The notes: generated by a model from the sequence alone, not told the origin. A stretch of 64,000 bases of DNA from an uncultured Verrucomicrobiae bacterium (GCA_963818965.1 CAWFUG010000009.1:32001-96000); one strand, 5' to 3'. Positions 1 to 26,414 are shown, counted from the first letter of the stretch. Made by a program: numbers and translations.

Positions 1-3000
1 CAGGTCCAACGGGACCGACCGGTCTGACAGGGACTACGGGTTCTACTGGGCCAACCGGGAATACAGGGCAAACTGGACCGACAGGATTTACTGGCTTAAC
101 AGGATCGACAGGATCTACTGGCTTAACGGGAGCTACTGGAACAACGGGAACGACTGGGAACACAGGGAGCACAGGTTCGACTGGCTCAACCGGTGCAACC
201 GGTTTCACCGGGCCAGTGGGATTCACAGGCTCCACAGGGCCTACAGGTCTCACGGGATCCACGGGACCTCTGGGAACGACTGGCTCTACTACAGGTAGCA
301 CGGGGAACACGGGAGTGACCGGTAGCACAGGATCGACTGGCCTGACAGGACCAACTGGCCTAACGGGCTCGACGGGCTCCACAGGTTCCACAGGACCTAT
401 AGGTTCGACCGGTCTGACGGGGACAACGGGCGCAACAGGGCTGACAGGGTTCACAGGTTCGACTGGCCCCACAGGGTCGACTGGTTTTACGGGCCCTACG
501 GGCAGTACCGGAGTTACAGGCTCAAGTGGTCCGACGGGAGCTACAGGCTTCACAGGAAGCACAGGTTCTACCGGCGTTACAGGTGCTACTGGGATGACTG
601 GTGGGACAGGTTTTACTGGCCCCACAGGTCTCACAGGTCCGACAGGATTGACAGGGGCAACGGGCAGCGCAGGGAGAACCGGGACGACCGGTCCAACGGG
701 GATGACCGGATCTACAGGCCTAACAGGATCGACAGGATCCGCAGGACAGACAGGAACGACCGGACTGACGGGTTTTACAGGTCCCACAGGGCCGACCGGT
801 GCGACCGGAGCAACGGGATCTACAGGATCTACAGGACCGACAGGCCCGACTGGAAACACAGGCGCAACGGGTCCGACAGGCTTCACAGGAACAACCGGCT
901 CTACAGGCAGCACGGGAGCTACTGGTCCCACAGGGCCGACTGGCCCGACTGGAAACACAGGCTCGACTGGAGCGACCGGGCCAGTAGGGAATACGGGGAC
1001 GACAGGGCTCACCGGTTCTACCGGCCCTACAGGTCCAACGGGACCGACCGGTCTGACAGGGACTACGGGTTCTACTGGGCCAACCGGGAATACAGGGCAA
1101 ACTGGACCGACAGGTACAACTGGTTTTACGGGGACGACAGGATCTACTGGCTTAACGGGAGCTACAGGAACAACAGGAACGACTGGGAACACAGGGGGCA
1201 CAGGTTCGACTGGCTCAACCGGTGCAACCGGTTTCACCGGCCCAGCGGGATTCACAGGCTCCACAGGGCCTACAGGTTTTACGGGATCCACGGGACCTTT
1301 GGGAACGACTGGCTCTACTACAGGTAGCACGGGGAACACGGGAGTGACCGGTAGCACAGGATCGACTGGCCTGACAGGACCAACTGGCCTAACGGGCTCG
1401 ACGGGCTCCACAGGTTCCACAGGACCTACAGGTTCGACCGGTCTGACGGGGACAACGGGCGCAACAGGGCTGACAGGGTTCACAGGGGGGACTGGCCCCA
1501 CAGGGCCGACTGGCTTTACGGGTTCTACGGGCAGTACCGGAGTTACAGGCTCAAGTGGTCCGACGGGAGCTACAGGCTTCACAGGAAGCACAGGTTCTAC
1601 CGGCGTTACAGGTGCTACTGGGATGACTGGTGGGACAGGTTTTACTGGCCCCACAGGTCTCACAGGTCCGACAGGATTGACAGGGGCAACGGGCAGCGCA
1701 GGGAGAACCGGGACGACCGGTCCAACGGGGATGACCGGATCTACAGGCCTAACAGGATCGACAGGATCCGCAGGACAGACAGGAACGACCGGACTGACGG
1801 GTTTTACAGGTCCCACAGGGCCGACCGGTGCGACCGGAGCAACGGGATCTACAGGATCTACAGGACCGACAGGCCCGACTGGAAACACAGGCGCAACGGG
1901 TCCGACAGGCTTCACAGGAACAACCGGCTCTACAGGCAGCACGGGAGCTACTGGTCCCACAGGGCCGACTGGCCCGACTGGAAACACAGGCTCGACTGGA
2001 GCGACCGGGCCAGTAGGGAATACGGGGACGACAGGGCTCACCGGTTCTACCGGCCCTACAGGTCCAACGGGACCGACCGGTCTGACAGGGACTACGGGTT
2101 CTACTGGGCCAACCGGGAATACAGGGCAAACTGGACCGACAGGTACAACTGGTTTTACGGGGACGACAGGATCTACTGGCTTAACGGGAGCTACTGGAAC
2201 AACGGGAACGACTGGGAACACAGGGAGCACAGGTTCGACTGGCTCAACCGGTGCAACCGGTTTCACCGGCCCAGTGGGATTCACAGGCTCCACAGGGCCT
2301 ACAGGTTTTACGGGATCCACGGGACCTCTGGGAACGACTGGCTCTACTACAGGTAGCACGGGGAACACGGGAGTGACCGGTAGCACAGGATCGACTGGCC
2401 TGACAGGACCAACTGGCCTAACGGGCTCGACGGGCTCCACAGGTTCCACAGGACCTACAGGTTCAACCGGTCTGACGGGGACAACGGGCGCAACAGGGCT
2501 GACAGGGTTCACAGGGGGGACTGGCCCCACAGGGCCGACTGGCTTTACGGGTTCTACGGGCAGTACCGGAGTTACAGGCTCAAGTGGTCCGACGGGAGCT
2601 ACAGGCTTCACAGGAAGCACAGGTTCTACCGGCGTTACAGGTGCTACTGGGATGACTGGTGGGACAGGTTTTACTGGCCCCACAGGTCTCACAGGTCCGA
2701 CAGGATTGACAGGGGCAACGGGCAGCACAGGGAGAACCGGGACGACCGGTCCAACGGGGATGACCGGATCTACAGGAATGACCGGTGTGGGGGGACCGAC
2801 AGGACAGACAGGAACGACCGGACTGACAGGTTTTACAGGTCCCACAGGTCCGACCGGTGCCACCGGAGCAACAGGATCCACTGGATCTACAGGATCTACG
2901 GGTTTCACTGGGATGACAGGAGCAACGGGTCCGACAGGCTTCACGGGAACAACCGGCTCTACAGGCAGCACAGGAGCTACTGGTCCCACAGGACCGACTG

Positions 3001-3290
3001 GCCCGACTGGAAACACAGGCTCGACTGGAGCGACCGGGCCAGTAGGGAATACAGGGACGACAGGGCTCACCGGTTCTACCGGCCCTACAGGTCCAACGGG
3101 ACCGACCGGTGCGACAGGAAATACAGGTTCTACTGGGCCAACGGGAAATACAGGGCAGACTGGCCCGACAGGATTTACTGGCTTAACAGGATCGACAGGA
3201 TCTACTGGCTTAACAGGAGCTACTGGAACAACCGGCTCGACGGGAAACACAGGCAGCACGGGTTCGACTGGCTCAACCGGTCCAACTGGT
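1..3290 (+). repeat. 1029-bp (343-codon) intragenic tandem repeat, about 3.2 copies visible
   Basis: caggtccaacgggaccgaccggt recurs at 1, 1030, 2059 and 3088. Identical shadow ORFs are offset by 1029 (720/1749, 799/1828). Confidence 0.95.
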
Positions 3291-4679
3291 TTTACGGGTC
3301 CAACGGGTCCCACAGGTTTCACAGGTCCCACCGGACCCACCGGACCCACGGGACTGACGGGAACGACTGGCTCTATGAGTAGTACAGGGAGTACAGGAAT
3401 GACTGGTAGCACAGGACCGACTGGCCTGACGGGACCAACAGGCCTTGCAGGCTCGACAGGTCTGACGGGTTTCACAGGCCTGACGGGATCTACTGGACTA
3501 ACGGGAACGACTGGTTCTACAGGAGCAACGGGTCCTACAGGTATGACGGGAGGGGTAACGGGCAGCACAGGATCTACGGGCTCCACGGGATTCACGGGGT
3601 TAACAGGTTCTACAGGCCCGACGGGGGCAACTGGATCTGCTGGCGGGGCAGGAAGCACAGGGCCTACAGGACCCACAGGTCTCACAGGACTGACAGGATC
3701 CACAGGACTGACGGGACCAACTGGATCGACTGGTGGGGCAGGGGGCACAGGAGCTACGGGTCCCACAGGACCCACGGGTCCGACGGGTTCTACAGGTAGC
3801 ACAGGTGCAACTGGTAACACGGGTCCGACGGGCACTACAGGATCTACAGGTGCAACGGGAGTAACCGGTCTGACGGGTTTTACCGGAACAACCGGTGCCA
3901 CGGGACCTACTGGTCCCACAGGACCGACTGGCCCGACGGGGGCTACGGGACCGACTGGTTTGACAGGATCGACAGGCAGGACAGGGAGTACAACTGGGGC
4001 CACCGGTTTTACAGGATCTACGGGAGGGACAGGTGCTACGGGCTTGACCGGTGGAACAGGACCTACTGGTCCTATCGGGCAGACAGGAACCACCGGCTCG
4101 ACAGGTCCCACTGGTTTCACAGGCTCTACCGGTTCGACGGGGTCGACAGGGACGACGGGACCGACGGTTGGGCTCACTGGCTCTACTGGTTCGACGGGGT
4201 CCACAGGTAGCACGGGGCCCACAGGTAGCACGGGTGGAGCGGGGGGACCGAATGCTACGGAAGACACCGGTTACTTTTATGTAATAACAGCTAGGGCTGG
4301 TACCTTTCCTGTGGCTGCTGGTGCAGCTATTTCATTTACTCAAGGTGAAGTGTCCGGAGGAATTACCTTTTCCGGTGGTAATCTAATCCACATTGCAAAC
4401 GCTGGAACTTATCTCGTTTGTTTCGGGTACTCTTTCGTAAGCGGTAATCCTCCAGCCCTCTTTACCCTTATTGTCAACGGCACCACCCCTCCATCGGGTT
4501 CCAGTCTCGCTTTAGGACAGGCGCCGTCGCTTCCTACTTTGGCAAATACGACGGTGATCATTACTGTGCCGGCAGCATCTACGCTCCAAGTGACCAGCAC
4601 AAGTGGTAATGTTACAACGCTAGGTTCCGGATCTTCTTCTGGGGGAACTTGTGCTTTTTTGAGCATCATTGCGCTCTAG
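3..4679 (+). CDS. Very long Gly-X-Thr collagen-like protein with ~140-aa C-terminal beta-sandwich (BclA-C/C1q-like) domain; 5' end lies outside the window
   Basis: Frame is open from base 3 (GPTGPTGLT...). More than 1400 aa of G-X-T triplets are followed by a globular tail (EDTGYFY...GTYLVCFGY...AFLSIIAL). Confidence 0.9.
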
Positions 4680-25755: not shown

Positions 25756-25763
25756 GAGACGTC

Positions 25764-26414
25764 TTACTCGTTTAGCGCAGATCTATATTTTGAGAACTTT
25801 TCATTCGGTTTTCTTGGGTACGATTGAGGTGGAAGCGGTATATTAAGAGGATCTTTTTGATAGATCCAGACGCGGTCGTGGCCGAGCAGGATTTCTTTGC
25901 CGAAGAGCTCATCGACGGCGCGCTTTACCCCCGAGAACATCGGAATCTCATCGGTGTAGTCGTGTCCTGATAAGATACCGCCAGGGCGGACCTTAGGGAG
26001 CCACGCGAGGATATTATCCCTGACTTGAGTGTATTCGTGATTGGCATCGATGAAGACGAGATCGAAGTCATCGGGAGTCTCTTGTACCGCAGCGACTGCC
26101 GTCATGCGTAAGATGGTCGTTTTAGGATCCTCTGCAAAATAGGAAGAGACCGCGTCAAATGCTTTTTTGTAATGCTTTTCTTTTCTGGAGATCGGCGTTG
26201 CGCTATAGAAGTAATCCCTGCTCAGTTGCCAGGGATCGATTAAGAACAGCTCCGCATTGGGAAAGAGATGGCGCAAGAGTTGCGCCGTTTCTCCCTTATT
26301 GACTCCGATCTCAGCGATCCGTTTGACCTCGACATCGAGCGCCCAAGTGATGAATCCTAAGAAGGGAGCGCGGTGGTTGATCAGACTGAGTTTAAATGCT
26401 TCTTCCCAATGCAC
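25764..26414 (-). CDS. Class I SAM-dependent methyltransferase (Methyltransf_24-like)
   Basis: IAEIGVNKGET, FDLVFIDANHEY and VRPGGILSGHDY motifs. Confidence 0.85.
   Translation of the reverse strand: MHWEEAFKLSLINHRAPFLGFITWALDVEVKRIAEIGVNKGETAQLLRHLFPNAELFLIDPWQLSRDYFYSATPISRKEKHYKKAFDAVSSYFAEDPKTTILRMTAVAAVQETPDDFDLVFIDANHEYTQVRDNILAWLPKVRPGGILSGHDYTDEIPMFSGVKRAVDELFGKEILLGHDRVWIYQKDPLNIPLPPQSYPRKPNEKFSKYRSALNE
25784..25842. repeat. Half of the 170-bp palindromic element, inside the methyltransferase 3' end
   Basis: tttgagaacttttcattcggttttcttgggtacgattgaggtggaag matches the right arm of the 52099-52268 element. Confidence 0.85.

Follow-up and report, generated by a model that had tools for sequence, protein, structure and literature searches.

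A 64,000-nt stretch of a bacterial genome assembly (genome G000, contig C9, positions 32001 to 96000; hereafter the window, with positions counted from its first letter) carries a locus of collagen genes with Gly-X-Thr repeats. This locus probably makes a brush of exported, O-glycosylated collagen fibres outside an environmental chlamydia, akin to the BclA nap and the fibril tips of Bacillus and Clostridioides spores. It is a real and conserved locus, and apparently an undescribed chlamydial variant of the glyco-collagen fibre. No description of a chlamydial collagen system, or of a bacterial heterotrimeric collagen, was found in literature searches that covered mostly open-access main text and part of the listed results. 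The genome is 2.24 Mb in size and 88% complete. The database sequences nearest to one of the locus proteins, a GT92-like glycosyltransferase (GT) homolog, come mostly from Chlamydiia, Chlamydiae and Rhabdochlamydiaceae (some are labelled 'Verrucomicrobia' or 'bacterium') and include Ca. Acheromyda, and we infer a rhabdochlamydial placement for G000.

Collagen chains and length-matched trios

The locus comprises nine Gly-X-Thr collagens with signal-like N-termini and starts 19 kb upstream of the window. Seven collagen open reading frames (ORFs), all on the plus strand, lie between window positions 3 and 25755: the C-terminal part of a giant chain (u3/c0, 3-4679; head at C9:29080, about 2394 aa from head to C-domain), then cassette 1 with c1 (11902-14094), c2 (14156-16423) and c3 (16407-18623), and cassette 2 with c4 (19157-21367), c5 (21384-23615) and c6 (23620-25755). 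Two further giant collagens and the head of the first window chain occupy C9:13194-32000; the two upstream giants contain 13 and 1 frame switches, which may be sequencing errors or decay. The earlier note had taken the locus in the window to be complete. It is not: the upstream giants lie outside the window, and a GT2-TPR protein resembling SgtA and an inverse-autotransporter beta-barrel (IAT_beta), both of which flank collagen genes in relatives, are encoded elsewhere in G000. Between the first, giant cassette and the second lie the GT92-like gene, a first propeller-FN3 paralog and a RidA-like gene, followed by propeller-FN3 paralogs 2 and 3 on the minus strand. Every protein of the locus except a methyltransferase at its end has a hydrophobic N-terminus, as judged from hydropathy.

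The claim that the Y position is nearly always Thr and that charge is almost absent was confirmed by counting. Thr occupies Y in 1258 of the 1487 triplets in the window (75-94% per chain; 442 of 469 in u3/c0), and 27 of 4647 helix residues in the window chains are charged. Outside the locus, the 2.24 Mb genome holds a single other non-poly-Gly run of at least eight triplets (11 triplets long), so the Gly-X-Thr runs are not due to chance. The collagens match PF01391. Read directly from the sequence, each chain has a hydrophobic, signal-like N-terminus, and a short head that usually has one Cys shortly before the helix. The helix opens with about eight Pro-rich starter triplets, continues as Gly-X-Thr and leads into a domain of roughly 140 aa. 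The C-domain of c2 passes the cut-off of PF18573 (BclA_C; 44.5 bits against 38), and the six other window C-domains match by tblastn and profile. A profile built from 18 C-domains matches 9H38 (E 6e-15), described in the available text of PMC12357932 as the trimeric C-domain of F-BclA, and BclA itself (E 3e-8 to 1.5e-7), in agreement with the earlier description of these proteins as BclA-like. By homology, the C-domains very probably trimerise and nucleate the helix. No NCBIfam exosporium leader was matched in the collagen N-termini; TIGR03720 gave no match either, although the TIGR03720 controls also gave none. According to the accessible part of PMC8968730, Thr is already common at Y in bacterial collagens (31.6% overall, 48.3% in Gram-positives), which makes the chains of this locus the extreme of a known kind.

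Hydroxyproline was considered as the main helix stabiliser and rejected, since Pro occupies Y in just 34 of the 1487 triplets. The earlier statement that bacterial collagens generally lack hydroxyproline has to be qualified all the same: the genome does encode a prolyl-4-hydroxylase-like protein (G000:C9:105281-105877), with homologs in 44 of 129 family genomes, G000 included. Such an enzyme could at most serve the Pro-rich starters. In another member of the family, a prolyl-4-hydroxylase-like 2-oxoglutarate-Fe(II) oxygenase with a hydrophobic N-terminus is encoded directly 5' of a Pro-rich collagen (G017:C21, L057:3467-5242; Y=Pro 40%), which suggests a hydroxyproline route within the same family. 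Two other collagen loci were also observed. The closed genome G023 has no GT92 match and carries what looks like a parallel version of the system (L045, G023:C1), with two giant Gly-X-Thr collagens (1149 and 1159 residues) that have a different C-terminal domain, a barrel upstream and YVTN-type propellers downstream. A distant family member (L051, G039:C12) has signal-less Gly-X-Thr collagens of another set, followed by a Methyltransf_24-TPR gene and other glycan genes, and this locus is possibly phage-like.

The chains fall into trios of nearly equal length. The head-to-C-domain distances of the three giants are 7193, 7195 and 7183 nt; those of c1, c2 and c3 are 546, 541 and 544 aa, and those of c4, c5 and c6 are 546, 544 and 539 aa. 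Recent duplication was ruled out as the source of these equal lengths by near-zero sharing of DNA words and low C-domain identity: chains of a trio have at most 0.6% of DNA words in common, the giants share at most 0.1% of 24-mers with one another while being 37-60% internally duplicated, and C-domains within a set are 17-40% identical. Three C-domain types were distinguished (FastTree support 0.95, 0.76 and 0.99), and the giant cassette and cassette 1 each contain one chain of every type; c4 and c6 lie outside the types. Matched trios recur in relatives, with lengths of 1815/1817/1819, 445/447/449, 201/201/201, 170/175/173, 232/224/219 and 505/493/492 residues. Under a fixed rule applied to 57 genes from relatives, 19 of 24 adjacent pairs agreed in length within 5%, compared with 45 of 1503 cross-genome pairs, the regions having been picked for holding collagen genes and many of them for holding several. 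Among hand-grouped sets, 12 of 16 were length-matched, against at most 4 in 10,000 shuffles. Selection on chain length is therefore well supported.

We lean towards the reading, for which there is a serious case, that the three divergent chains of equal length in each cassette of G000 combine into one ABC heterotrimer. Such fibres would reach about 150 nm and 670 nm when scaled from 701 residues to 196 nm, the relation given for F-BclA in the available text of PMC12357932. A less probable explanation is that the chains form homotrimers, with equal length selected so that different tip domains reach the same brush height and the trios serve as antigen or receptor variants. Many loci in relatives have one collagen gene, which means that homotrimers exist in the family, and three loci have pairs (G014, G080 and G023); moreover, cassettes 1 and 2 are equal in length, so that their six chains form one length class, and prokaryotic collagens are described as homotrimers in the accessible part of a 2022 review (PMC8968730). 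The heterotrimer reading also has to accommodate the neighbouring chains of unmatched length in G001, G041 and G043 and the lack of aligned helix interruptions between chains beyond the first. Nevertheless, giants that expanded independently differ by 12 of about 7190 nt, which is tighter than brush height should need. Exact threes recur in G128, G067, G131, G001 and L115, and the presence of one chain per C-domain type in the giant cassette and in cassette 1 also speaks against homotrimers. For this locus, the trios argue against a plain homotrimer of the BclA type, and we prefer the heterotrimer.

The GT92-like protein and probable glycosylation of the helices

Thr glycosylation is the likely stabiliser of these helices, because they have neither charge nor enough Pro at Y, and because (GPT)10 folds after galactosylation only, being a random coil until then (available text of PMC11923368, citing Bann 2000). 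An uncharged Gly-X-Thr helix would be unable to hold together unaided, and it is thus likely that the Thr residues carry sugars.

The gene closest at hand in the window encodes the GT92-like protein (5113-6048, plus strand). Its start is likely at 5113, within an ORF open from 4879, and its N-terminus is hydrophobic. The protein matches PF01697 (E 5.6e-31) and PF13704 (E 8e-16), and its structural model has a GT-A fold with GalS1 as the best match (Foldseek E 4e-12, Z 18.6, root-mean-square deviation 6.8, 261 aligned). The assignment of this gene to GT92 in the earlier note was thus upheld by family matches, as were those of RidA (PF01042) and Methyltransf_24.

Linkage of collagens to GT92-like and propeller genes in relatives had been proposed in the earlier note as a test of the system, and it was strongly borne out. 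The gene order collagen, GT92-like gene, 8-blade propeller-FN3 recurs as a conserved module. GT92 matches across the 129 family genomes form two tiers, the top one at E <= ~1e-61. A collagen C-domain is present in 39 of the 40 genomes with a top-tier protein, versus 21 of the 89 others. Distances were taken from C-domain rows of the genomes relevant to the 47 top-tier copies: for 31 of these, a same-strand C-domain lies immediately upstream, no more than 600 bp away, and for 39 there is one within 10 kb. Gene neighbourhoods were compared in 77 loci with flanks of up to 8 kb, taken from the 80 top-ranking matches out of 574. Collagen was detected by pattern, whereas a few of the same loci had served as seeds for the partner profiles. 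A clade of 51 members that includes the window protein (FastTree support 0.875) has collagen in 39 of 50 loci, the propeller in 34, GT2-TPR in 27 (20 at full score), IAT_beta in 14, GT25 in 14 and RidA in 5, whereas the 27 other GT92 loci have zero collagen, propeller, GT2-TPR or barrel genes. In a phylum sample of 301 genomes, this GT92 type was found in 22 of 62 genomes of its own family and, for two other families, in 5 of 46 genomes and in 1 of 5, with none found in the rest.

The active site of the linked clade is degenerate. In ordinary GT92 relatives, the DxD motif is present in 30 of 30 and a His on the last strand, presumably the third metal ligand of GT-A enzymes, in 29 of 30, with both in 29 of 30. 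In the collagen-linked clade, DxD is found in 20 of 51, the His in 10 and both in 3. The DxD substitutions are varied, and nine residue types occur at the His position, Lys or Arg in 25 of 51. An independent set of database representatives follows the same gradient by a regular-expression count, with the motif in 3 of the 27 closest and 34 of 41 distant sequences. Two features are retained: the Glu after DxD in 50 of 51, and Arg249 in at least 90% of the clade. The window copy keeps D-I-D-E and has Lys245 in place of the His; it thus lacks the full pair of DxD and His. Loss of the pair in 48 of 51 members indicates that the clade protein, as far as its sequence can tell, either catalyses without metal or is a pseudo-enzyme whose aromatic groove is conserved. 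The loss weakens the earlier assignment of Thr glycosylation to this protein. We see the protein as devoted to the collagens, where it would elongate the glycan independently of metal or else serve as a non-catalytic chaperone binding collagen or glycan.

The SgtA-like GT2-TPR is a better candidate for priming Thr than GT92, and it is somewhat favoured here as the most likely source of the first sugar. In the available text of PMC7157674, SgtA combines a GT-A domain with TPRs, its gene adjoins bclA3, and it O-GlcNAcylates the GPT threonines of BclA3. The chlamydial protein has a GT2 domain followed by TPRs, and a motif of the D-A-D-D type is retained among the full-length copies listed; its best PDB matches other than TPR proteins are GmaR and SunS/ThuS, of which GmaR and SunS are protein glycosyltransferases. 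Full-score copies occur in 20 of the 50 clade loci, and GT2-TPR lies directly beside collagen in G002, G009, G136 and G021, where the GT92 type is missing.

How the GTs and fibres are deployed admits other explanations. It is doubtful that the GT92-like protein itself primes Thr, and no less doubtful that it is an active, metal-independent enzyme placing a sugar such as galactose on collagen Thr, with Lys or Arg replacing the metal. It is the most tightly linked gene, its fold is nearest to a galactan synthase, and the retained Glu, the basic residue for His in about half of the clade, the conserved Arg249 and the intact DxD of the window copy all fit such an enzyme. However, the scatter of substitutions at DxD and His, with the same trend among the database representatives, counts against it, as do Gly-X-Thr collagens that occur without a clade GT92; to our knowledge, the GT92 enzymes studied so far extend glycans and do not prime proteins. 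Much less probable is a surface-glycan island, in which the GTs would act on lipopolysaccharide, propeller proteins or host glycans and the collagens would be unglycosylated adhesins. Loci in relatives also carry GT25, GT11, FkbM and Methyltransf_24, typical polysaccharide-cluster genes, and ordinary GT92 paralogs lie in a collagen-free glycan cluster on contig C6 of G000; yet the adjacency of collagen and GT92 is specific to the clade (39/50 versus 0/27), and nothing else that would stabilise an uncharged Gly-X-Thr helix poor in Pro is apparent. About equally improbable is release of collagens and GTs into a host vacuole, where host sugar donors would be used and the fibres would form a matrix or coat around the bacteria, with no anchored nap. 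In line with this, the GTs, RidA, the propellers and the collagens all start with signal-like sequences and show no anchor segment, and free-standing IAT_beta barrels that could export chains occur in 14 of 50 loci. However, the G000 IAT_beta genes (C1:55081-56115 and C2:78293-80587) are unlinked to collagens; the head Cys residues also suggest a disulfide tether to a cross-linked envelope.

The brush of glycosylated fibres is the reading we retain, and several points count against it. Glycosylation, expression and surface location are predictions from the genes. The 51-member clade receives a Shimodaira-Hasegawa-like approximate likelihood ratio (SH-aLRT) of 39 in IQ-TREE (a 53-member clade receives 100), and the co-occurrence counts are overstated since kin genomes are not independent. 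Gly-X-Thr collagens without a clade GT92 are found in G022, G023 and G021. In G000, GT2-TPR lies on contig C8 (242070-243248) among other glycosyltransferases and away from collagens; 74 of 129 genomes have it, and 24 of these lack a collagen domain. By hydropathy scan, neither the collagens nor the propellers show a membrane anchor. The signal-like N-termini of the two GTs would put these enzymes in the periplasm, from which nucleotide sugars are normally absent, and leave the source of their sugar donor unexplained.

Two observations on export are recorded here. Many glycosyltransferases and methyltransferases of G000 have signal-like N-termini (L001, C6:172-8694; C8:240422-243248), which is unusual for enzymes using nucleotide sugars or S-adenosylmethionine. 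Free-standing, passenger-less inverse-autotransporter beta-barrels (PF11924) lie beside collagens in L038, L040, L043, L045 and L049 and are candidate export pores.

Propeller-FN3 proteins and other neighbouring genes

The three secreted beta-repeat/FN3-like paralogs of the earlier note are predicted to fold as beta-propellers. Paralog 1 (6089-7645, plus strand) is predicted to be secreted, and paralogs 2 (8141-9721) and 3 (9927-11501) lie on the minus strand; all have signal-like N-termini. Paralog 3 is a recent duplicate of paralog 2 (86% aa and 88% nt identity across a 1.8 kb unit). The structural model (pLDDT 92.5) has eight blades, by secondary structure, and an FN3 domain, and the blades are Trp-rich. 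PLL/PHL lectins are the top Foldseek matches (E 5e-11, TM-score ~0.7 by target), and the Z-scores are 29.1 for a WD40 domain, 27.1 for CylK and 24.1 for PLL4. No Pfam or PDB sequence family was matched, and all Atlas leads were below 0.9; this family is unannotated. Of the 129 genomes, 34 carry the subfamily; every one of these has a collagen domain, and 30 have the GT92 type. In one relative (L236:3835-5808, G269:C51), a propeller-FN3 protein encoded directly behind a clade GT92 continues at its C-terminus into 45 Gly-X-Thr triplets, which form a perfect tandem repeat of recent origin and lack a C-domain, and one database member ends in three Gly-X-Thr triplets. These two cases weakly place the propeller at the base of the fibre, where it may be a structural or glycan-binding partner. 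A lectin role is a tentative idea at best, and a role as fibre anchor is slightly less likely still. At least five other intact secreted proteins share the FN3-like C-terminal domain with the propellers (L002:4869-6785, L005, L006 and L007). Several of them adjoin small outer-membrane beta-barrel genes, and the FN3 end is possibly a surface-targeting module. Proteins more distant from the propellers but with this FN3 end are found at several sites of G000 that hold no collagen.

The RidA-family gene (7676-8086, plus strand) was described earlier as a secreted member of the locus. Its PF01042 match, signal-like N-terminus and proximity to clade GT92 agree with this, but the association is confined to three genera. 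Its seven closest relatives (E 1e-37 or better), from five genomes in two further genera, are each encoded no more than about 3.5 kb from a clade GT92. The window protein scores below the TIGR00004 cut-off. It and these relatives keep an Arg, and a C-terminal Glu is replaced by Ser in the window copy and in 7 of 7 relatives' copies; we take these two positions to be active-site residues of the imine deaminase. By its sequence and distribution, the secreted RidA is a genuine but late, lineage-limited accessory.

A 77-nt leader precedes the GT gene (4844-4920) and the two collagen cassettes (11828-11904 and 19104-19180, all plus strand), at 74-78% identity. A fourth copy lies at the true start of the locus, 19 kb upstream of the window, and every one of the four genome copies is in this locus. 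The observation that the GT shares the leader of the collagen cassettes therefore holds as far as the copy is present, but this copy is followed by six codons like the start of c4 and then by a dispersed repeat up to about 5075, and the leader is local to this genome. Because of what follows it, we regard the copy before the GT as left behind by cassette duplication. The same holds for a truncated, 64-aa version of propeller paralog 1 at 18649-18843 (plus strand, 90% nt identity). The leader was also considered as a conserved regulon signal and rejected: none was found in the relatives' loci searched, and a promoter scan gave 6 sites against a shuffle mean of 9.5, none of them at the leader. 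The dispersed repeat, which has about 60 BLAST matches genome-wide, occupies intergenic gaps at 4934-5075, 11700-11765, 18844-19000 and 25764-25850.

The convergent Methyltransf_24 gene (25764-26414, minus strand) abuts the collagen locus and had been counted as part of it. It belongs instead to a recO/rlmN neighbourhood and was ruled out as a member. Close orthologs exist in 21 genomes including G000, and among 19 orthologous loci in relatives, recO is present in 10, and not one contains collagen within 1.5 kb. The protein has no signal-like start, and its last ~25 codons derive from a repeated element. Other Methyltransf_24 and FkbM genes are present in some relatives' collagen loci, so O-methylated glycans are possible via another gene. 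Further along, at 29438-30923 and 31601-33289, are two MptE-like (PF01973) genes, the first broken across two frames, which fits indel errors or decay elsewhere in the assembly.

Significance and comparison with known systems

These results would carry glycosylated fibres of the BclA type beyond Firmicute spores and into a large family of chlamydiae, in which the GT92 type occurs in 40 of 129 genomes, and they name its parts: the degenerate GT92 clade, the unannotated propeller-FN3 family and GT2-TPR. The locus also offers a natural system for the question, left open in the available text of PMC11923368, of whether Thr is glycosylated before or after helix folding. If confirmed as heterotrimers, the trios would represent the first bacterial collagen built from mixed chains, would overturn the homotrimer statement quoted above from PMC8968730, and would provide the small, recombinant-friendly chain-selection domains noted as lacking in the accessible part of the same review. 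The fullest form of the proposal is speculative. True ABC heterotrimers of up to about 2400 residues would be specified by divergent BclA_C domains and glycosylated on Thr after export by GT2-TPR, with a GT92-derived pseudo-enzyme as chaperone and lectin-like propellers, forming a factory like that of a secretory pathway in a Gram-negative envelope.

The closest known system is BclA/F-BclA of B. cereus-group spores (1WCK, 9H38; available text of PMC12357932), which has a Thr/Ser-rich stalk, a C-terminal TNF/C1q-like trimer domain (E 6e-15 to 1.5e-7) and a neighbouring glycosyltransferase gene. Unlike it, the locus is found in a Gram-negative, non-sporulating host and has signal-like N-termini, apparently in place of an exosporium leader or ENA docking motif, and for these reasons we do not class the chains as exosporium BclA; divergent length-matched trios and the novel GT92-like and propeller partners are further differences. 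The SgtA-BclA3 pair of C. difficile, as far as the available text of PMC7157674 describes it, shares a GT-A and TPR gene beside a GPT-rich collagen, and the chlamydial GT2-TPR agrees with SgtA in the order of its domains and roughly in size. The likeness is one of design and of gene position in relatives. However, the chlamydial enzyme has a signal-like N-terminus and is unlinked in G000, and BclA3 has predicted C-terminal membrane helices that the locus chains lack.

For the partners, the GT92 galactan synthase GalS1 (8D3T/8D3Z) shares PF01697 and the best fold match with the window GT, and its DxDE segment aligns; in contrast, the clade has mostly lost DxD and His, matches part of GalS1 only and has a bacterial, collagen-linked context. 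The PLL/PHL lectins of Photorhabdus resemble the propellers in Foldseek rank and Trp-rich blades, but they are seven-bladed, as opposed to eight blades and FN3 here, show no sequence match and include PLL4, which falls below WD40 and CylK by Z, so this likeness is a lead only. Finally, the trios may resemble animal ABC heterotrimeric collagens in having three distinct chains whose helices agree in length and whose trimerisation domains diverge, a likeness that carries no claim of homology. They differ in using Thr for hydroxyproline, and the heterotrimer here is proposed from sequence.

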